Shown in pieces: positions 1-59,769 of a DNA stretch of 64,000 nucleotides. The notes under the pieces were generated by a model. The model ran no database searches and had not been told where the DNA came from. It saw only the letters and a program-made list of their open reading frames with translations. How positions within the stretch are numbered: position 1 is the first letter of the stretch; every line of letters begins with the position of its first letter. This DNA is from Mobula hypostoma (Eukaryota), in assembly GCF_963921235.1 (NCBI RefSeq), contig NC_086097.1, forward strand, positions 129,892,001 through 129,956,000, in the 5' to 3' direction. The translations under genes and the position numbers were made by a program.

Positions 1-89
1 GAGTCAGCAGCTTTAAATTCCAGGGCATTAACAAGAGCAGAACTGGGCCCAGCACGCAGTTGCAATCACAAGGAAAGCAGGTCACCAAA

Positions 90-790
90 CACTCTAACAA
101 ATTCTATGTTTGTACTTTTGAAAGTATCCTGACTGGTTGTATCATGGTGAGGTATGGCAATTTGAATGCAAAGGAATGTAAGAAGCTGCGGAGAATAATG
201 AGCTGTGCTCAATACATCTTGGAGTTAACCCTCCCTGCCATCGGTAATATCTAAATGAGGCAAAAGTATGGATATGTACAGACCATAATGGAAACGTATG
301 TAAAGGATGGAGAGTTATTGAATGGTTTATTGTATATAATTTTATTTTTGAATAAAGTATATTTTGAAATAAAAAAGTATCTAAATGAGGTACTGCCACA
401 AGAAAGCAAAATATGCCATCAATGATCCTGGCATTCTGGGCAATGCCATCTTTTCACAGCTACCATTAAGCAGTGGCTATAGAAGCCTTAAGTTCCACAC
501 CAGCAGGTTCAAAAACAGCTCCCTGCCTTCAAGTATTCAGTAGTTCTTGAACTCACTGTCAAAAACCCTAATCATAACAGCATTATTAGCAACATTATGA
601 CGACTGATCACCTTGCACAAAAATGAACTGTTTCTTTTTGTTTTAATTGAGTTCTTTCTTGTAAAATTTATGATTTTCTTATGAATACAGCTTATATGAT
701 GGAATACACCTGTGATACTGCTGCAAATAAATTTTTAATTGCACCTGTGCGTACATGTAGTTATGCCAATGACAATAAACTTGACTTTTT
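90..790 (+). mobile_element. Rex1/Babar-type LINE 3' fragment, decayed
   Basis: Translation 'FYVCTFESILTGCIMVRYGN...' resembles the Rex RT C-terminus; ends GACAATAAAC like the other Rex tails in the window. Confidence 0.7.
261..377 (+). mobile_element. Short 5'-truncated poly(A)-ended retroelement tail (L1/Tx1-like)
   Basis: AATAAA and A-rich end; flanked by a perfect 13-bp TSD TATCTAAATGAGG (248-260, 378-390). Confidence 0.65.
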
Positions 791-888
791 TTTAAAACAG
801 AAGCTATAGAATGCAATAGCAGGGAGGGCAGTAATTAGCTGGCACTGTGTTTGATACAAACTCCACTGACCAGCATCCTTCAACAGGT

Positions 889-1073
889 AGGAGCAGATGG
901 GCAGTGATTTGGCCACCACTGCCGGCCCACCAACTGGAGAGTGTCATGGTTAAGGGTCGAAAACACTCTGTGAAGGTTGGGAGCCACCCGATGACATTTG
1001 CTCCTGGCTGAAGGCTACAGTTACTTTATAAGGTATCTGGAGAATGCACCCTAACAGGTGTATGTAACAAGTA
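889..1073 (+). repeat. Upstream copy of the ~185-bp terminal direct repeat
   Basis: Matches 5744-5927 with about 9 differences counted by eye. Confidence 0.97.
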
Positions 1074-2571
1074 ATCTCTGTTTTGTACCAGTGGCTTCCA
1101 GGAAAGACTGGATTGCAACCGAGGAAGGTCAGTGACGCTGGAGAGACAGCTGACCTCCAGGAAAGACTGACACGGGCTCACAAGGCTAGCAACCTTGTGG
1201 GCAGCACTCGCAAGAGGGAACCACTCAAGCTACGATTGAACACAAAGAGCAATACCCTCAGAGTCTCCTGAGAGGGAGGGGAGAGGATGAGAGACGCAAC
1301 GGGACGATATACCGGCAATGGCCAGGACAGGAAACACAACTACAAGGAAGCTAAAGCAAACAACACTGACTGGAGAGGAATTCACAGTAAGGTGTCATTG
1401 CAGGAAAGTCTGCAAAAACATCAGAGGGCTCAAAAGATATACCAGAGCAGGTCTAGATGTGGATCAATGGTGACCCAAGTGCAGCACATGGACTTGGTGT
1501 CCGGTGAGACGAAGGAGAATTCCAGCCAGGAAGCATCCCACAGAGCTGAAGATCTCTCCGCACTCGAGTAGCCTCAGCACCGAACAACAGACCAAGTGAG
1601 TTCCCCTTTGGCTACCCCAATCCATTCATCAAGGAAAGGCAGGATCAAATGGCCTAGATCGTCAGACAACGTCACCTGGATGCAACCAAATAGGAGGGAA
1701 AGGGAGGTTCGTCGCTTGAGAGGTGAATTACAGACGCTCAACAAGAGGTTTAAAACCAGCTCACTGACCAAAAGAGAAGGTTTCAAGGACGTAACCAGTA
1801 TGCTGCGGGAAAAGCTGTGCAAACTCTGGAGGGCGGAACATCTACGACAGCAAAGAAGGAAGAAAGAGAAAAGGCGAGCGCAGTTTGTGAGAGATCCATT
1901 CAGTTTCACCAGGACTCTTCTCGGCCAACAAAAATCTGTTATACTATCCAGTTCGAAGCCAGAGGGAGAGGAGTTCCTGTGGGAGGCACACAGTGACCCA
2001 TGGAGGGGTCAGGGACTAGGAACTAATGGGGCTGTGCGTAGACCGGAAAAACCATCAAATGAGCTGAATGTGAAGGAGCCTACGTGGCAGGAAATCCAGG
2101 ACATCATCTGGAAAGCTAAAGCATCAGCTGCCGCAGGCCCAAGTGGTCTACCTTATAAGGTGTATAAGAAATGCCCAAAACTTCTTCGGAAGCTGTGGAA
2201 GGTCATGAGAAAGATCTGGGCCATAGGTACTATTCCATCAAGTTGGAAATTGGCAGAGGGATGCTTTATTCCAAAGGAAGAGGATTCTTCCACATTTACC
2301 CAGTTTTGGACAATTTCTCTCCTAGATGTGGAATGTAAGATTTTCTTTTCTGTGCTCACTAGAAGGCTGACTTCTTACATGACGCAGAACCGCCTTGTCA
2401 ACACATCTATCCAGAAAGGCGGTATTCCAGGCTTTTTGGGGTGTCTGGAACACACCTCAATGATTAGCCATTTGATCCGTGAGGCCAAGCAGAGAAAAGG
2501 CGACCTAACAGTTGTCTGGTTAGACCTCGCGAGCGCCTACGGGTCTATTCCTCATGACTGTTGGAGTGTAT

Positions 2572-2755
2572 GGGGTGTCAGGTAGGGGTAGCACCTCTGG
2601 TGGGGGAACACATTGTGTCCTTTTCAGGGCGCTTTGTCACCTTTGGTCCCCACCTGGCACTCAGCTCTCACCTGTGGCTCCCTGTAGGTGTTTGCATGCG
2701 ACAGCAGCCACACCCTGGGCAACGGCTTTGACAAGCCGGCTAAACCAAGTGAAGG
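2572..2755 (+). ncRNA. HDV-like self-cleaving ribozyme (putative)
   Basis: P1 GGGGUGU 2572-2578/ACACCCU 2710-2716 with G-U at position 1; P3 GGC/GCC; P1.1 CC 2680-2681/GG 2717-2718; P4 CGGCUU/AAGCCG; J4/2 GCUAA with C2740; imperfect P2 2665-2674/2746-2755. Confidence 0.7.
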
Positions 2756-2912
2756 TAGCCGACTGGTCTCAAACTCTCAGTGAGATAGGGAGTTGTCTAT
2801 CCCAGCATGTGAAGACAGACTCCGGCGGATTGAGCGGACGAGACCAATGGTAGGTCCAACGGTCAAGAAGGCAGTCTCCGCAAGCGCCGTGGAACACGTA
2901 GAGCACGACAAG

Positions 2913-3457
2913 ACCATATAACCATATAACAATTACAGCACGGAAACAGGCCATCTCGGCCCTTCTAGTCTGTGCTGAACTCTTACTCTCACCTAGTCCC
3001 ACCGACCTGCACTCAGCCCATAACCCTCCATTCCTTTCCTGTCCATATATCTATCCAAATTAACTTTAAACGACAACATCGAACCTGCCTCAACCACTTC
3101 TGCTGGAAGCTTGTTCCACACAGCTACCACTCTCTGAGTAAAGTTGTTCCCCCTCATGTTACCCCTAAACTTTTGCCCTTTAACTCTCAACTCATGTCCT
3201 CTTGTTTGAATCTCCCCCATTCTCAATAGAAAAAGCCTATCCACGTCAACTCTATCAATCTCCCTCATAATTTTAAACACCCCTATCAAGTCCCCCTCAA
3301 CCTTCTACGCTCCAAAGAATAAAGACCTAACTTGTTCAACCTTTTTCTGTAACTTAGGAGATGAAACCCAGGCAACATTTTAGTAAATCTCCTCTGTACT
3401 CTCTCAATTTTATTGACATCTTTCCTATAATTCGGTGACCAGAACTGTACACAATAC
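2913..3457 (-). mobile_element. CR1 LINE 3' fragment
   Basis: YCVQFWSPNYRKDVNKIERVQRRFTKMLPG...LERRRLRG and TRGHELRV motifs; (TATATGGT)n tail. Confidence 0.9.
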
Positions 3458-3630
3458 ACAAAGGCACAGAAGATGTCCTGGTCATCCACTACGCCTAGTC
3501 TCATCTCCAGCCGTCTCGACTCTTGTCTTGCCACTGGATCCAGATGGGAATTGGGAAGAGAGAGTGAGGCTGACACCGTGCAACTCTCCCTCACTTAAAT
3601 CCAAATCAAGCGTTAGTCTCGGCATCATCA

Positions 3631-3771
3631 GCCGGCTGGTGGCGCAGTGTCAGCAGCGCTGGACTCCAGGAGCGAAGGTTCCCGAGTTCGAATCCAGTCG
3701 AGCTGCTCCCGGGCACACTTTCCATTCTTGCCAAGGTTGAGTGTCGAGCTAGCAACTCGGCATCGTAAAAA
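3631..3771 (+). mobile_element. tRNA-derived SINE (lacks the 3' tail)
   Basis: A box TGGCGCAGTG and B box GAGTTCGAATCC; same head as 34637-34940. Confidence 0.8.
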
Positions 3772-5740
3772 GTACTAATGGCGTCGAGGTCTTCATCAAT
3801 GATGATGGACGAACCTTAATTCCACATGACCTCATCCTGTAAGGACTCGACCACTACTACATCCCAGTGGCTATTCGAGACATGATCACCAGCTACCTAG
3901 GAGGATTCAAACTCAGATTTACATCAGCCCATTTCACAACTAGTTGGCAGGACCTCCAGAAGGGGATTCCAACAGGGTGCGCCATCTCTCCCACCCTATT
4001 TATTATGGGAATGAACCTCCTATTATCAGCAGCAGAAGATGTAACCCGCGGCCCGACGTTGGAGTCGGGCATTGTTCAGCCGACTCTACGAGGGTTCATG
4101 GACGACATCACTATAACAACTCTGGCACATGTCCAAGCAAGATGGGTATTGGAATCCCTGGATGATGTAGCCACTTGGGCGAGGGTGTCCTTCAAGGCCA
4201 AGAAGTCCAGGTGTATGGTGATCAGAAAGGGCAAAGTTACTAGCAAGTTTAGCCTCCAAGTTCAGGGTGAGGTCATCCCTTCCATCAAAGATAACCCGAT
4301 AAAATGCTTGGGGAAGTGGTTAAATGTGTAATTGACAGACGGGGCCAATGTCACCAATACTGTGAAGCAGACAGACGAATGGCTGGAGAAGATCGACAAA
4401 TCCAGACTTCCCAGTAAATTCAAGACCTGACTGTACCAATACAGCATTCTGCCCAGGCTTCTCTGGCTCTTCACACTTTATGAGTTCCCCATGACTGCCG
4501 TACAGGGCATCGAGAGGAAAACCAACAAACACTTGCGGAGATGGTGGGGAGTTCCCCCAAGCTTCTCTTTAGCGGGTGTCTATATTCGAACTGGCAACTG
4601 CAGCTTCCCCTGTCATCTGTTGTGGAGGAATTCAAGGTGGCAAAATGCAGAGCCTTATTACACTTGAGAGATTCCAATGACGTCTTGGTAAAGCAAGCAG
4701 GTGTTACAACCAGATCTGGGTGCAAGTGGGCAGCCAACGCAGCTGTGGAGCAGGCAGTGTGTTCTCTGAAGCTGTGAGATATCATCGGCAACTCCTGCGT
4801 CGAGTGGCAAGGCCTCGGCTCAGTTCACTTCCAGCAGTGGGGAAACGCAAGCATAAGGAACAGGTGAGACATGGTACAGGCAGAAGTACGGATCCGTGAG
4901 GAAGAGAAGTGGATGTCAAAGGCAGTGGAACAAGGGTCCCAGCGTGCCTTGACAAAATGGGATCTGCCCAAGCGCAAGATCTCATAGGCAGAGTTATGGA
5001 GACTGGAGCCCTTCCGTATTTCCTTCCTCTTGCGATCAGTGTATGATACCCTGCCTTCACCATTGCATCTGTACTCATGGGGGATGAGAGCGGACCCGAA
5101 CTGAAAGCTCTGTGGTCAAAAGTGGACACTGGCTCATATACTGTCCAGGTGTAAAACAGCTGTAACTCAAGGACGGTATGGGTGGCTCCTTGATCAGGTG
5201 CTTCTGGCTGTTGCTGACACACTAGAGCGGGAGAGATGCAAGAAGAGGGCGGCTGGCACAGATTTGAGGAAGACCATCACCTTCATCAAGGAGGGAGCCA
5301 GGCTTTTCGTAACCAAACAATCTGCTGCTAACAGCCAGGTCCTGGGAGATGAGGGTCGATGTGGGAAGGAGGCTGCAGTTCCCGGATGTGGTGCACACAA
5401 CCCTACGCCCGGACATTGTACTGTGGTCAACTGAAGACAGGAAAATAATTCTGGTTGAGCTGACTGTGCCATGGGAGGAGGGATGGGAAGAGGCCCACGA
5501 CAGAAAGGCCTTGAAGTACCAGCCCTTACTGCAGGAGTGTAACGAGAAGGGATGGCAGGCATGGTTGTTCCCTGTGGAGATCGGCTGCAGAGGTTCCCCA
5601 GTCAAATCAGCATGGCGGTTGTTGTCAGATCTGGGCCTGGACGAAAGGAGCAAAAAAAGACAAGCAGATCGTAGGATGGGGGAAGAGGCAGAACGGGCCT
5701 CTTGTTGGATTTGGAGTAGGCGAGAGGAGGGAAGCTGGAA

Positions 5741-5862
5741 GCCAGGAGCAGATGGGCAGTGATTTGGCCACCACTGCCGGCCCACCAACTGGAGAGTGTC
5801 GTGGTTAAGGGTCGAAACACTCTGTGAAGGTTGGGAACCACCTGATGACATCTGCTCCTGGC
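5741..5862 (+). ncRNA. Putative non-circularly permuted hammerhead-like ribozyme with kink-turn
   Basis: GAGUGU-C (5794-5800) pairs with GAA-ACACUC (5814-5822); GUGGUU (5801-5806) pairs with AACCAC (5836-5841), directly followed by CUGAUGA (5842-5848); 14-bp closing helix 5741-5754/5849-5862. Confidence 0.7.
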
Positions 5863-5927
5863 TGAAGGCTACGATTACCTTATAAGGTAACTGGAGAATG
5901 CACCCTAACAGGTGTATGTAACAAGTA
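5744..5927 (+). repeat. Downstream copy of the terminal direct repeat (ORF end plus 3' UTR)
   Basis: Matches 889-1073. Confidence 0.97.
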
Positions 5928-6292
5928 TCAAGACAAGAGTAGTGCCTGACAGACCGATGAGGCGACAGGCTGCAGCTAAAGACAATAAAACACAGGAAAT
6001 CAGCACATCAAATCTGCTTCACCCTTCCATCATGGCTGATTTATTATCCCTCTCAACCCCACTCTCCTGCTTTTTTCCCCATAACCCTTGATGCCCTGCG
6101 TAATCAAGAAACTATCAATCTCGGCTTTAAATATACCAAATGGCTTGGCCTCCACAACCGTCTCTGGAAATGAATTTCACAGATTCACCACCCTCTGGCT
6201 AAAGAAATTCCTCCTCATCTCTGTATTAAATGGACGTCTCTCAATGCTGAGGGTGTGCCCTCTAATCCTAGACTTCTCCATTCTAGGAAACA

Positions 6293-7652
6293 TCAGAATC
6301 AGGTTTATTAAGTAAAAATTGTGCAAAAATAGAAAGTTTATATATATATATATATCTAAAAGTGAGGCAGTGCTCACGGGTTCAATGTCCATTTAGGAAT
6401 CAGATGGCAGAGATGAAGAAGCTGTTCCTGAATCACTGAGTGTGTGCCTTCAGGCTTCTGTACCTCCTACCTGATGGCAACCAGATTTGGGAACAGCTTC
6501 TTTCCAACTGTGATAAAACTGCTGAACGGATCCTGACCCAGATCTGGGCCTTACCCTCCAAATATCTGGACCTGCCTCTCAGTTTTTTTGTACTACCTTA
6601 CTTCCCATTTTTCTATTTTCTATTTATGATTTATAATTTAAATTTTAATATTTACTATCGATTTGTAATCCAGGGAGCGGGAAGCGCAGAATCAAATATC
6701 GCTGTGATGGTTGTACGTTCTAGTATCAATTGTTTGGTGACAATAAAGTATAAACTAACAGTGAGAAAGTGGCATGCCGTGGGTGCTGGGGGTCCTTAAT
6801 AATGGACGCTACCTTTCTGAGACACTGCTCCTTGAAGATGTCCTGGGTACTTTGTAGGCTAGTACCCAAGATGGAGCAGACTAAATTTACAACCTTCTGC
6901 AGCTTCTTTTGGTCCTGTGTAGTAGCCCCTCCACCCCATACCAGACGGTGACGCAGCCTGTCAGAATGCTCTCCACAGTTTTTGAGTGGTTTTGTTGACA
7001 TACCAAATCTCTTCAAACTCCTAATTAAGTATAGACACCGTCTAGCCTTCTTTATAGTTGCATCGATATGTTGGGGCCAGATTAGGTTCTCAGAGACCTT
7101 GACACCCAGGAACTTAAAACTGCTCACTCTCTCCACTTTTAATCCCTCTATGAGGATTGGCATGTGTTTCTTCATCTTACCCTTCCTGAAGTCCACAATC
7201 AGTTGTTCTGTCTTACTGACGTTAAGTGCAAGATTGTTCCTGCGACACCACTCCACTAGTTGGCATATCTCGTTCCCGTACACCCTCTCGTCTCCATCTG
7301 AGATTCTACCAACAGTGGTTGTATCATCAGCAAATTTATAGATGATATTGGAGCTATGCCTAGCCACACAGTCAAGGGTATACAGAGTAGAGCTGTGGGC
7401 TAAGCACACACCCCTGAGGTGCACCAGTGTTGATTGTCAGTGAGGAGGAAATATTATCACCAATCCTCAAAGACTGTGGTCTTCCACGTAGGAAGTTGAG
7501 GATCCAATTGCAGAGGGAGGTACAGTGGCCCAGGTTCTGTAACTTCTCAATCAGGATTGTGGGAATGATGATGTTAAATGCTGAGCTATAGTTGATGAAC
7601 AGCATCCTGACATAGGTGTTTGTGTTGTCCAGGTGGTCTAAAGCTGTGTGAA
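6293..7652 (-). mobile_element. Rex1/Babar LINE RT plus 3' end
   Basis: [38 protein letters not shown]; contains a second, + strand Rex-type tail at ~6480-6756. Confidence 0.85.
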
Positions 7653-8409
7653 GAGGCCATCCTCTCCAAATCCACTCAATCTTGTTCTTTCAATATTCAA
7701 TAGGTTTCAATGAGATCACCCCTCATTCTTCTAAACTCCAGTGAGCCATAAAACACTTGTCATATGATAATCCTTTCATTCCTGGAATCATTCTTGTGAA
7801 CCTCCTCTGGACCCTCTCCAATGCCAGCGCATCTTTTCTTAAATAAGCGACCCAAAACTGCTCACAAAATTCCATGCAGTCTGTCCAAACCCTTACACGG
7901 ACTAAGCATTACATCCTTGCACTTATATTCTGTATCTCTTGAAATGAATGCTAACATTGCAGTTGCTTTCCTTACCACCGCCTCAACCTGCAAATTATTC
8001 TTTAGGGAATCCTGCAAAGGACTCCTAAGTCCTTTTGCACCTCTGATTTTTGAACTTTCTCTCCTGTTTAGAAATAATCTATGCCTTTATTCCTTCTACC
8101 AAAGTGCATGACCATACACTTCCCTACACTATATTCCATCGGCTACTTTGGCCATTCTCCCAATCTGTCAAAGTCCTTCTTCAGACTTCCTGGTTCCTCA
8201 ACACTACCTGCCCCTCCACATATCTTTGCACTAAGCCATCAATTCCATCATTCAATCTGTTGAAAAGCAGCGGACCCAATAACAACCCCTGTGGAACACC
8301 ACTAGTCACTGGCAGCCAACCAGGAAAGGGCCCTTCCTCATTCACACTCTTTGCCTCCTGCCAGTCAGCCAATCCTCCATCCATGCTAGCAGCTTTCTTG
8401 TAATATTAC

Positions 8410-26736: not shown

Positions 26737-28060
26737 TATGTCTATGTGTTCCAACAATATCACAGTTCTCACACTGCTCTTATCTGTAACCTACTATCCT
26801 GCCAAGCTGTACTTCACCAATTCTGGCTTCTTGAGTATTCTCTATTTTCATGGCTCCACCTTGTATGGTCAGACACTCAAGTTCTGGAACGTTCCTTGAC
26901 ACACACTCTGTGGTCTGAAGAGCCTACTTCCACATTGTATCACTCTGCCTGTGGTTCCAATGTATGCAATGGGAAGGGCTTTCACCAGTGGCTTTGCCTC
27001 ATCTTGTCTATAAGGAACAACAAATCATTAGGCAAAGCCCCACATTTTTAACTCTTTACACTGGCTATTTCCTCTGGCTTTCAGTCCAGGTGAAATGTCT
27101 CAACTTGAAACATCGACTGACTATTTCCATCCAGGTCCCTAACTCGCTGAGTTCCTCCAGGTTTTTTATGTGTTGCTCCAGTTTCCAGCACCTGCAATCT
27201 CATATCGCAAAAATGCACACCTGAGGCATAGTGAAATTAAGCTAACAATGTCCACCTAATGATCTGCCTTCTCTTTGCTCACCTTTGACACTAAACCATC
27301 TCATGCAGCTTGTTATTTGGCGCATATTTGCCTAATATTTGGACCTCAAAATGCTTTCTAAGAGAGAGAAACAAAGCTGTGTTGCCTGTTTCTTCAGACG
27401 CACACTTTTCTAAGGAAGCAGCATAATTCCCTCAGCAGCAGTAGAACAGGTTACATTTTCAGATTGTATTTCAGATTTCCACCATGTGCAATCTTTTGAC
27501 TTCTTTTGTTCATTTTTTTTCTTGCAGCTTGTAAGCAAAATTAATGTACATAGTAAGGTTCACCTTGCCCCAAACCAACTTTCTGTTATCCAATCCTATT
27601 CACTTTTTCTTCTATTCTTTCCTTCTGGATCTAGCTTTGCCACAAATAGGTGCAAAGTCTCTGTGGAAGCCAGATCAATATTCTCATCACTCTCTCTGGG
27701 TAAAAGAGGTTATGCCTGAAATCTCGGTTAGATTTACTAATAAAGATCGAATACTCATGTCATATCACCTTTCACTAACAAAAAGGCCTGGCGGAGGATG
27801 TATTTCTTGTGGCATTTGGCAAAACTCCATCTTCCTGGGAACATACTGGTGTAATTCTACATTTCCATTATAGAGCGTTTTCTCACATCAGCCATTAACC
27901 TCTGGGTTGGTGCAGCATTCTCTCACTATATACGATATACCACAACAAATTCCTCACAAATGTAAATGTATATGGTGAATAAAGTTGATCTTTGATGACG
28001 TCCCCACATGAAGACACAGTCTGTACATGTCATTCAACCCCTTAAGAATTTTAGCAATCT

Positions 28061-28235
28061 TAACTGGCTTCTTGATACATTTGTGACAAAATACAATGAT
28101 TTATAACTGGCTTCTTGATACATCTGTGACAAAATACAATGATTTATAACTGGCTTCTTGATACATCTGTGACAAAATACAATGATTTATAATTGGCTTC
28201 TTGATACATTTGTGACAAAATATAATGATTTATAA
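28061..28235. repeat. 43-bp tandem repeat, 4 copies
   Basis: TAACTGGCTTCTTGATACATYTGTGACAAAATACAATGATTTA starting at 28061, 28104, 28147 and 28190. Confidence 0.97.
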
Positions 28236-55856: not shown

Positions 55857-56108
55857 ATCTAACCTTCTCATAATTTTGCATACTTCTATCAGGTCACTCC
55901 TCAGCTTCCTCCACGTCAAACCCAGTCTATCCAGTCTCTTCTTAAAATGCTGCAAACTCAGCAATATCCTGGTGAATCTCTCCAGCACAATCAAATCCTT
56001 TCTATAGTGTAAACAACAGGAATTCTGCAGATGCTGGAAATTCAAGCAACACACATCAAAGTTGCTGGTGAATGCAGCAGGCCAGGCAGCATCTCTAGGA
56101 AGAGGTAC

Positions 56109-56144
56109 AGTCGACGTTTCAGGCCGAGACCCTTTGTCAGGACT
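56109..56144 (-). ncRNA. Minimal type I hammerhead with core mutation
   Basis: Identical to 56923-56958 except CUGACAA (G8 to A). Confidence 0.8.
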
Positions 56145-56922
56145 AACCGAAGGAAGAGTTAGTAAGAGATTTGAAAGTGGGGGCGTGCGGGGGGGAGATC
56201 CAAAATGATAGGAGAAGACAGGAGGGGGAGGGATGGAGCCAAGAGCTGGACAGATGATTGGCAAAAGGGATACGAGAGGATCATGGGACAGGAGGTCCGG
56301 GAAGAAAGACAAGGGGCGGGGGGGACCCAGAGGATGGGCAAGGGGTATATTCAGAGGGACAGAGGGAGAAAAAGGAGAGTGAGAGAAAGAATGTGTGTAT
56401 AAAAATAAATAACAGATGGGGTACGAGGGGGAGGTGGGGCATTAGCGGAAGTTAGAGAAGTCGATGTTCATGCCATCAGGTTGGAGGTTACCCAGACGGA
56501 ATATAAGGTGTTGTTCCTCCAACCTGAGTGTGGCTTCATCTCAGGTTGGAGAAACAACACCTTATATTCCGTCTGGGTAGCCTCCAACCTGATGGCATGA
56601 ACATCGACTTCTCTAACTTCCGCTAATGCCCCACCTCCCCCTCGTACCCCATTTGTTATTTATTTTTATACACACATTCTTTCTCTCACTCTTTTTCTCC
56701 CTCTGTCCCTCTGAATATACCCCTTGCCCATCCTCTGGGTCCCCCCCTCCCCTCCGTGTCTTTCTTCCCGGACCTCCTGTCCCATGATCCTCTCGTATCC
56801 CCTTTTGCCAATCACCTGTCCAGTTCTTGGCTCCATCCCTCCCCCTCCTGTCTTCTCCTATCATTTTGGATCTCCCCCTCCCCCTCCCACTTTCAAATCT
56901 CTTACTAACTCTTCCTTCAGTT

Positions 56923-56958
56923 AGTCCTGACGAAGGGTCTCGGCCTGAAACGTCGACT
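56923..56958 (+). ncRNA. Minimal type I hammerhead ribozyme
   Basis: AGUC CUGACGA AGG-GUCUCGG-CCU GAAA CGUC^GACU; intact core and palindromic ACGU stem III. Confidence 0.88.
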
Positions 56959-59769
56959 GTACCTCTTCCTAGAGATGCTGCCTGGCCTGCTGCGTTCACC
57001 AGAAACTTTGATGTGCGTTGCTTTCTATAGTGTGGTGGACAGAACTTCACACAATACTCAAAGAGCAGCTGAACAATTATCTTAAAAAGTTGCTATCAAA
57101 TCTCCTGTTTGCTATGCCGCGGCCGATGAAGGAAAGATCCCAAACACTTCCTTCACCACCTCATCCACCTGTAGTTCCACTTTCAAGGATTTAAGGACTT
57201 GTTCCTGGGACCTGAACACAATAGCAAAGATGTACTGCTGATGCTTTACGAGGCTTTGGTCAAACCACATTTGGAATTTTGAAAAGGGTCTAGAAGAACT
57301 TCACAAGAATGAAGCCAGGAACAGAAGCTTAACCTAGTCAATGGATCTCAGAATGAGGGGCGATTTCAGTGATACCTACAGAATACAGAAAGCCTGATTA
57401 GAGTGGAGCTGGAGAGGATATTTCCATTAGTAGGAGAGTCTAGGACATGAGAACTCAGAATAAAGGGATGCAAAGAATAAGATGAGGAGGAATTTCTTCA
57501 GCCAGAGGTGAAGCTGTTGAATTTGTTGCCATAGAGGACTATGGAGGCCAAGTCATTTGGTGTATTTATGGCAAAAATCAATAGGTTCTTGATTGGCAAG
57601 GAGTTTAATGATTACAGGAAGAAGGCAAGAGAAAGTGGATGGAAAGAAGATTAGCCATAGTTGAATGGTGGAGCAGATTTGATAGGTCAAGTGGCTTAAT
57701 TCTGCTCTTATAACCCATAGTTTATGGTACTCCAAAGGCTTACTGTGCATCAACATTCCTTATAGGTCCTATGATTTACTCTGTTTACCCTACTCTAGTT
57801 TGCCCTCCAGCATGATGTATTTGTGTCAGTATAATGTTTACTTTAGTTTTTAGGACATAAATATTCAGAGGTACAAGAGGTTAAATTCTCATGAAAGTAA
57901 CTCAAGCTAAAGAGCTGCGAACTTCAAAATGGAGCTTCACTGCATGCTTGTCAGCAAAAGGGAATCACAGGTGCCTTAAGGAAAGAAAGAAAGAATTCCT
58001 TTACTTTAAGAATCACAGCAAACATGTTTTAAGTTACTGAAAATGAAATGAGGATTGTGTTCAAAATGTTTTCCACCTCCAGTAAAATGTGCAGGAAGTG
58101 ATTAAACAGAGCCGTTAATTCTGTTTGTCTCAGTGTGATACAGACTGGCTGTTGGCGAAGAAACAAGCAAACCCATTCCAAAAAGGAAGAATGCCTTGAC
58201 TGCTTAAAATTCAAATCTGATTGAAGGACAAGTGGTAGAGAACATGCATTCCTTGTGATTTAATTCAACGTGTGAAGAATGTCCACACTGCCGTGTTTAG
58301 AAGAGAAATTAAAACCATGCCCAACCAGCAACTCCCAGAAACATACAGCATGGAAAGTGAAGCCTTCAAGTCCACTATCAAGCACCCACTCTATGCTCTC
58401 AGATCCTACCACACACTAGGGATGATGTACAGTTGCTAGTTAACCTACCAGCCTGCACATTACAGTCACACGGCATGGAAACAGGCCCTTCAGCCCATCG
58501 AATCTGCACAAACTCTCAACCATCGATTGCTGCCAATCCCAATTTATTCCTCCCACTCCCCCCACCCCAGTTCTTATCAACTCCCACCAGATTTCTATAG
58601 CTCACCTACACACCAGCAGAAATTTATAGTGGCCAGATTACTGTCTTTGGGATGTGAGATTAAACTAAAATACCTGAGGAAAGCCAAAATATTAACAGAG
58701 AAAACATGCAAACTTCACACAGTTAGTATGAAGATCAAAAACAAATCCAGGCTGCCGATCTCCTAGCTGTGCAACTGTGTGACTCACTAAATTTTAAAAA
58801 AACGAATTGCCTTTCCCCATTGTGAAATTTTCCTTGATCTCCTGCTTGACTGTTTAGAACCTTACTCATTATATCAAATAATACCATTACAAAAAGTACT
58901 CAAAACCCAGGAGACCCGTGTAGCTTTAAACAACACAGCATTTATTCTGCTAGTAAAATTCACGATTACACCTCTACAATAACTTGTATTTGTCTAGTAC
59001 CTATAGCAAAGGTAAACGATCTGTGGAACTTCACAGCAGGGTCACTGACACCAAGGAACATGATGTTTTCACAGGGCAATGTCAGTAATGCCAAGAGATT
59101 GAGGGAGTGAATTCCAGAGTTTAGACCTTCGACAGCTGAAGACAATGACGGACCAATTCAGTCTGGAGAGAACGAAATTAGAAAGGTGCAGGGATTGGAG
59201 TAGAAGAAGTTACAGAGGCAGGATAGGGTAAGACCATGGAGGATTTGAAGACAATTTTTAAAATCAAGATTTGTTTAACCAGTGGCCAGTGGAGGTCTGT
59301 TCATGCAGGGTTGATGGGACTTGTGCAAGTTGGGACACAGACAACCTGAAATTTATGGAAGCTTGAATGAGGGTTTCTTACATTAATGGAAATAATTATC
59401 AGGAGTATAACAGTCAATAGTTCACTGCTGAGCCTATACAAACCTTTGGTGATAGATACATTCTCAAGTAAATAAATAATCAAGTTCTGTTCCAGAAGTA
59501 TCACATCACAGAAAGGTTCAGTAAAGTTTTTTTTAAAAAAAAAAGTCACCGCCTGAGAAACTACTGAGATATGAATTATTGAGATGTACTGAAATACCCC
59601 ACTGATTAAATGCAAAAAGCACCTCCATTTACCAGCGTTTAGCAATAAGCAATAATATCAGACAATCAAGATTTTCTTCAAATCTAACAACACCAAATCC
59701 ATCAAATGTTTAAATTCTCACCTTCCTGACTTTTCGCTCAAATCGGTCTGCAAGCCAAAAACATTTAAT

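Follow-up and report, generated by a model that had tools for sequence, protein, structure and literature searches.

R2 retrotransposons, whose reverse transcriptase (RT) is combined with a restriction-like endonuclease (RLE), carry a 5' ribozyme resembling that of hepatitis delta virus (HDV), insert into a fixed 28S rDNA target and normally lack a terminal repeat. Penelope-like elements combine a telomerase-like RT with a GIY-YIG nuclease and a type I hammerhead near the start of the open reading frame (ORF); hammerheads are reported in their pseudo-long terminal repeats (pseudo-LTRs; PMC11167929, PMC4209133), and a Penelope RT starts internally (PMC11167929). Retrozymes are small and non-coding, and the hammerheads in their repeats are reported to make circular RNA templates (PMC4918200, PMC7229834). 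Here, we describe a retrotransposon at positions 889–5927 of a 64,000-nt stretch of the Mobula hypostoma genome (NC_086097.1, 129,892,001–129,956,000, forward strand; hereafter the window). The element is like R2 in its RT-RLE protein family and putative use of self-cleaving RNA, like Penelope-like elements in its partial tandems, the hammerhead motif within its repeat and an apparently internal reverse-transcription start, and like retrozymes in having hammerheads in repeats. It differs from retrozymes in that its 3.7-kb unit encodes its own RT and RLE, and from Penelope-like elements in having no GIY-YIG nuclease or telomerase-like RT and in the hammerhead motif of new topology at the end of its ORF.

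The window copy is a dead HERO/Zebulon-type RT-endonuclease retrotransposon; its HERO-like class agrees with the initial annotation, which had been made from the sequence alone and did not mention the decay. The family has a single ORF with RT and a C-terminal RLE, broken in the window copy. We found 346 homologous proteins at an E-value of 1e-20 or better, with fish, lancelets and bivalves among the 120 listed. The Tetraodon polyprotein AAN12398.1, whose cluster also contains BAC82599.1, shares 45% and 48% identity with two segments of the window; we take the two proteins to be Zebulon and HEROTn, respectively. R2 proteins match far more weakly (E-value 1e-27). A quick RT tree of 77 rows, containing no R2, NeSL or R4 outgroup, places the window family within a 46-row clade including AAN12398/BAC82599 (Shimodaira-Hasegawa-like approximate likelihood-ratio support 95). 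Insertions are dispersed with unrelated flanks, showing no sequence-specific target, and no relative of the element was found among viral contigs. An Rfam scan of window positions 1–8000 returned neither a 5' HDV-like ribozyme nor any other match, and only one chance-level match across 10 relatives. The element thus shares with Zebulon and HEROTn of the Hero clade the single RT-RLE ORF, the lack of target specificity and the tandem structure. Partial tandems are not new, because the title of the 2003 Zebulon paper already names a tandem structure (Bouneau et al. 2003, PMID 12805276). Neither a ribozyme nor circular RNA has been reported for this clade as far as we searched: a literature search that left subscription papers and Repbase notes mostly outside its reach turned up no paper linking Hero or Zebulon to a hammerhead or to circular RNA, nor do passages from two 2026 preprints mention Hero.

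The rearranged hammerhead motif

The motif occupies positions 5741–5862. It comprises helix P0 (5741–5754/5849–5862), hairpin Pa (5755–5778), stem II (5779–5783/5809–5813), P4, a helix joining the stem I and stem II sides (5785–5790/5829–5834; the I-II helix), stem III (5794–5799/5817–5822) and stem I (5801–5806/5836–5841), together with GAAA (5814–5817) and CUGAUGA (5842–5848). By analogy to the hammerhead core, self-cleavage is predicted at GUC|G, between 5800 and 5801. By its core and by covariation, the ribozyme-like RNA of the initial annotation is a rearranged hammerhead, with the GUC site as named there. Its strand order is crossed, and it does not have the type I, II or III connectivity of the Rfam models. 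A Pistol-like reading, based on sequence likeness, was dropped after the hammerhead core and covariation had emerged.

We compared 34 instances chosen by a regular expression for the core; a covariance model contributed held-out matches. The triplets before the predicted cut are GUU (12), GUC (9), GUA (7), AUA (5) and GUG (1), conforming to NUH in 33 of 34 instances, while the pairs U16.1-A15.1 and G10.1-C11.1 are present in 34/34 and 32/34, and position 7 of CUGAnGA (N7) varies. Judged by sequence, the triplet set and the variable N7 are the hammerhead pattern. In an independent MAFFT alignment of 28 of the 34 instances, 91% of the cells of the six helices are paired and both-sided changes occur at 33 of 36 pairs, a value reached by 0 of 500 shuffles; slid controls gave 35–42% of cells paired, although the proposed structure had the advantage of having been drawn from the window copy. 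Stems I, II and III have 96%, 96% and 98% of cells paired, with double changes at 5/5, 4/5 and 5/6 pairs. A canonical stem II following CUGAUGA was rejected, its first pair being found in 1/28 and its covariation not exceeding that of shuffles. Of 40 loci whose sequence extends far enough past the ORF, 37 have a covariance-model match beside the ORF end, 11 of these lying outside the training set; one further locus (L141) matches by pattern only. Loci with the motif are found even on the most deeply branching lineages of the RT tree. A locus 66% identical to the Tetraodon protein (L148) has the complete motif and one 63% identical (L159) has a motif with a damaged GAAA. Covariation and sequence conservation show all hammerhead core nucleotides and six helices in the motif, which is very probably a working ribozyme.

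The closest described RNA is the type-SGC non-circularly permuted hammerhead, found in metatranscriptomes and cleaving in vitro (Eckert et al. 2023, PMC10085705). The 33 variant rows available from that article are metatranscriptome or metagenome records, and the article names no retrotransposon host. The two motifs share the order cut site, GAAA, CUGAnGA, a short linker from stem I to stem II, the I-II helix and similar local sequence. In type-SGC, stem IIa directly follows CUGAnGA, whereas the 5' strand of stem II lies upstream in the window motif. Here the base after CUGAnGA is G in only 1 of 34 instances, so that the unbroken core block is absent. Instead, a fixed upstream segment forms five Watson-Crick pairs with stem IIb in 27/34, as against 53/1,036 for control segments taken from other families. 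The window motif also contains a four-way junction created by the insertion of P0 and hairpin Pa, and its stem III is connected to the I-II helix by both strands, in a segment that fits the K-turn consensus (5791–5828), with a bulge at 5823–5825 followed by G5826.A5793, A5827.G5792 and A5828.G5791. The K-turn consensus of a 3-nt bulge with tandem G.A/A.G pairs is found in 20/34; bulges of 0, 1, 2, 4 and 6 nt occur in 4, 1, 1, 0 and 2 instances, and the 10 instances with 5 nt likely represent a shifted register of the same motif.

The type-SGC authors treat CUGAnGA and stem IIa as inseparable and point out a wide separation, in the crystal structure, between the distal ends of stem III and of the I-II helix (PMC10085705). 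A rough, back-of-envelope sum for the window motif gives a reach of 26–32 Å within one molecule, where 39–42 Å would be needed. This shortfall suggests an inactive nested fold for the single strand, with docking between the head of one repeat and the socket of a second. P0, Pa, P4 and stem III would form a nested rod exposing both a head loop with the cut site, stem Ia, stem IIb and GAAA and a socket with stem IIa, stem Ib and CUGAUGA. We consider it rather probable that cutting needs two copies of the motif, in which case a circle with a single motif would be stable. Dimer-dependent hammerheads appear in the title of Lunse 2017. The Hero clade, partial tandems and the SGC order were known beforehand; as far as we searched, the split core block, the four-way junction, the K-turn consensus and a clade-wide hammerhead in an RLE retrotransposon are new.

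The upstream repeat and the tail-to-head junction

In the window, positions 889–1073 align to 5744–5927 with ~95% identity (185 columns, 8 substitutions and one 1-nt indel), so the terminal redundancy reported by the initial annotation is real. This copy has no poly(A) 3' of 5927 and no target-site duplication (TSD; its score of 20 equals the control median), also as reported. The first base of the upstream copy corresponds to 5744, which lies 3 nt inside P0; the initial annotation read the repeat edge as matching the structure boundary and the repeat as a pseudo-LTR. A first look at the 3.48-Gb genome gave 1,474 candidate 3' ends and 256 candidate 5' untranslated regions (UTRs). Of the 95 loci retrieved, 40 came from DNA similarity searches with the 5' UTR, 49 from exact 5' UTR patterns and 6 from a junction pattern favouring repeats; 82 were retained after removal of one duplicate and of 12 loci that were fragmentary or belonged to the sister family. 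First tallies (69 junctions, 76 mapped 3' ends and 69 TSD loci) included the sister family.

The element's own 3' end (at least 10 nt) lies upstream in 68 of the 82 loci, with lengths from 11 to over 2,100 nt. The remaining copies start within 4 nt of the junction (8/82; Poisson p ~0.0006) or inside the UTR (6/82). The redundancy is accordingly a family feature. The suggestion that a truncated copy merely happens to adjoin the window copy has the 5% divergence of the two repeats in its favour, but an arrangement common to 68/82 copies refutes it and leaves it a negligible probability. Repeat lengths are continuous, and only the window copy (1/82) starts within 5 nt of the equivalent of 889. 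We therefore regard 889 as a random stop and its match to the structure boundary as chance, and reject both the fixed pseudo-LTR and the structure-matched edge.

The tail-to-head junction, at 1066–1081 in the window by spacer comparison, is seamless: the spacer is 20 nt in 62 of 69 readable junctions, and 3 more were mis-anchored. Mapped 3' ends fall at 5925–5927 in 62/76, and matches to a template continuing past 5927 fade within 1–3 nt. Among the first 100 of 410 exact matches to the 3' end, none has poly(A), 13 are junctions, 87 lie in unrelated DNA, and ~31, counted by eye, show short re-duplications of the last bases. These ends bear on the possibility that new 5'-truncated copies land exactly in front of existing full-length copies. 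Such self-targeting would yield repeats of another haplotype, and upstream lengths do resemble ordinary truncations. Yet 3' ends elsewhere vary over 5924–5927, and are often re-duplicated, while junctions are uniform; most listed ends, as counted above, lie in unrelated DNA; and repeats agree with their own tails far above random expectation (0/3,000 permutations). Self-targeting is already largely refuted, and we consider it very improbable.

TSDs of 35–64 nt lie flush around repeat plus unit in 3/69 loci; a fourth match lies within a minisatellite. Short TSDs as a rule were not found across the loci tested. Repeat and unit inside one TSD show copying past one unit, as the initial annotation had proposed. 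Among metagenome relatives, which are assemblies in which repeats can be collapsed, an end-to-start repeat occurs at ~3.6–3.8 kb spacing in 11/73 loci.

Several loci deserve mention in their own right. Metagenome locus L101 (positions 85–7266), one of these 11, has two families, 68% identical, head to tail at 3,739-nt spacing within a single contig, representing either a mixed tandem or an assembly chimera. The sister family, which shares the genome (L204-L206, L208, L211, L217-L219, L225, L227 and L259), has 76–86% identity over the 5' portion and a different 3' tip, and several of its loci share the tail-to-head junction. Another sister-family element, L263 (G000:C45:87651846-87652339), carries the 59-nt unit of the 5' UTR array described below, expanded into about ten tandem copies. 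L061 (G000:C1:127436567-127446566) shares the deletion of the window copy at 1684 and consists of a 1,684-nt repeat, a unit and 99 nt of further 5' UTR. L095 and L216 (G000:C18, ~42 kb apart, opposite strands) have identical insertions and flanks and represent a segmental inverted duplicate.

The template of the repeat

The reading we prefer, to which we give an even chance, is that the ribozyme cuts RNA at both repeats to yield a unit-length circle, on which the RT runs past one round; whether such a circle is the main template we judge to be just as finely balanced. The process would begin with the RNA of a near-complete copy, bearing upstream a 3' end of variable length joined seamlessly to the unit. 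Docking between its two motifs, each with the hammerhead core and six helices supported by covariation, would allow cuts at both C5800, releasing a 3.74-kb monomer whose ends would be held by P0, P4 and stem III and then ligated. The reverse-transcription start at 5925–5927, ~125 nt past the cut site, would represent internal initiation. After one round, the RT would meet its own primed start at the junction, where it could stop, displace the complementary DNA (cDNA) and continue, producing a repeat equal to the tail, or shift by homology to a second RNA, producing a repeat that differs. Stops at the junction would be explained by this encounter. An R2 RT carries out rolling-circle reverse transcription in vitro, producing concatemers on circular RNA (PMC11331410).

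A haplotype test constrains this reading. At 27 diagnostic non-CpG sites in 50 loci, we made 217 comparisons of a repeat with its own tail. Permuted pairs agree at 55%, with a maximum of 69% in 3,000, and ~95% would be expected from the same template, given a background mismatch of 4.7%. The observed agreement, 170/217 (78%), lies between them, and among long repeats some are near-identical and others mixed. A simple mixture calculation puts the share of repeats that came from another RNA at about 40%. The strict single-circle rolling model is refuted by this value. Of the circular or tandem copying past one round put forward initially, the copying past a unit stands (3/69 loci) and the plain single circle is weakened. 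Haplotypes are also mosaic along the unit, with all four gametes in 63–70% of site pairs more than 50 nt apart, sister family included.

Several observations weigh against the circular reading. The repeat is often of another haplotype than the tail, and the reading therefore requires an added switching step. Linkage of the body is stronger with its own tail, despite the distance, than with the repeat beside it (r2 0.20 versus 0.12 and 0.17 versus 0.06; swap p 0.06 and 0.01). From this linkage and the 78% agreement, template switches of the RT appear to be frequent and to take place at the junction rather than at the cut site. We rejected the idea that joined RNAs cross over where they were cut, since the predicted repeat-to-body linkage was unseen and the reverse was found. 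Site 5890 has the highest body linkage of all sites, giving no sign of the repeated cut-site crossover expected of mixed-repeat circles. A transcription start at the junction would account for the stops there just as well. Loci L132 and L166, with enough 3' sequence, gave no motif match, and the reach estimate is rough, as noted. The hammerhead of a Penelope element proved dispensable in vitro, with no reads ending at its cut site (PMC11167929). Assembled contigs of sequencing runs, most of them presumed to be RNA, contained one goes-back joint (depth 2.4, one run), which was set aside, since DNA tandems would give the same.

Genomic traces of cutting are ambiguous as well. Copies start at 5801–5803 in 3/82 cases (local p ~0.02), one sister-family copy begins at 5804, and the 100 listed of 122 matches include two solo tail fragments beginning at the cut site; a second pattern gave no further cut-site start among the 100 listed of 172 matches. 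We take these starts as a weak hint because a larger cluster, five starts in 4 nt at 5845–5848, has no predicted cut. The repeat extends well past the cut site in 39 of the 44 copies reaching it, implying that most templates were intact there, either ligated or uncut.

This last count bears on tandem read-through, in which uncut transcripts span two units, reverse transcription begins in the tail of the second, the upstream part is inherited and truncated, and 5' trimming falls to the upstream ribozyme, as it does in R2. It accounts for the seamless junction, the mixed haplotypes and the few starts at 5801–5804, and long partial tandems exist (L061, L073, L074 and L248). Uncut RNA is also the main substrate for a Penelope element (PMC11167929). 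Against it, a dominant stop at 5801 is predicted where 39/44 copies pass well beyond, repeats could only shorten without a step renewing them, and the fetched loci, a subset of copies, include no multi-unit array. We consider tandem read-through improbable.

The linkage pattern is also accommodated by a linear RNA whose transcription starts at the junction (~1070–1078): the RT would copy as far as the 5' end and then jump onto a 3' end, either of that RNA or of one from another element, guided by a few shared bases. The ribozyme would then have a side role, such as cutting read-through or dimerising RNA. R2 RT is known for end-to-end jumping. The peak of 5' ends at the junction (8/82), the switch point at the junction and not at the cut site, and the inheritance of body and tail en bloc beside a repeat often of other haplotype all agree with such a jump. 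Yet end-to-end jumps are usually imprecise and this junction is seamless; a catalytic core conserved clade-wide 125 nt from the 3' end would be left without a main use, and cutting there would strip the RT start from a linear RNA; and the 100 listed 3' ends include no poly(A). We regard the linear jump as possible but doubtful.

Returning to the circular reading, we tentatively extend it to all Hero-clade elements, in fish, molluscs and further hosts. These might be autonomous long interspersed nuclear elements (LINEs) replicating via circular RNA, in which two-repeat docking, required for the split hammerhead to work, would both dimerise the RNAs and cut them to unit length, and rolling-circle reverse transcription with switching between the paired RNAs would rebuild the repeat and recombine lineages in the manner of retroviral dimers. 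We think this generalisation less likely to be right than wrong.

The window copy and wider significance

All parts of the element in the window lie on the plus strand, apart from a later insertion of unassigned strand. Relative to its relative P0006, the window copy has ~10 stops and several frameshifts; the unit length is ~3.74 kb. The upstream partial copy of the 3' end (889–1073), whose length varies among copies, would be cut at 945|946, but its ribozyme is damaged, with CCGAUGA at 988–994, an additional A in GAAA and G>A right after the cut site; the core of the 3' ribozyme is intact. The 5' UTR (1074–1240) contains UGAC and short hairpins with GA(A/G)AGA-type loops, matched by a regular expression in 14 metagenome loci and the window. 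Its array repeats (1088–1240), recognised by eye and conserved immediately downstream of the junction, might serve for protein binding or translation entry. The broken ORF covers the N-terminal part and the first half of the RT at 1182–2558, with ~145 nt deleted at 1684, and continues at 3819–5762, by sequence comparison, with the remaining RT, a zinc-knuckle region and a PD..E.K-type motif that we take to mark the RLE. Its stop codon (5760–5762) falls within hairpin Pa. Between these parts lies the foreign insertion in the RT, 1,260 nt at 2559–3818, missing from other copies of the family and flanked by a 12-nt near-duplication (2547–2558/3819–3830); it contains a minus-strand fragment at ~2990–3460, presumably LINE-like. 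The 3' tip (5863–5927) forms two hairpins before the fixed reverse-transcription start at 5925–5927, without poly(A). Elsewhere in the window, nested inverted repeats of 93–98% identity form a ~1-kb near-palindrome at 56044–57023, and a 43-nt unit is tandemly repeated about four to five times at 28018–28232.

If the circular reading is true, it would explain how the tandem structure described for Zebulon in 2003 arises, and a hammerhead, and possibly circular RNA, would enter the R2-like LINE lineage, where we found none reported. Non-circularly permuted hammerheads gain a genomic, animal host, and the motif represents a natural break in a block assumed to be unbreakable. Pattern searches would miss it because the block of CUGAnGA and stem II is broken. 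The two-copy model might also answer the geometric puzzle of the type-SGC authors. As R2-like enzymes are in development for gene insertion, an enzyme that initiates internally on a circle would, if confirmed, be of practical interest.

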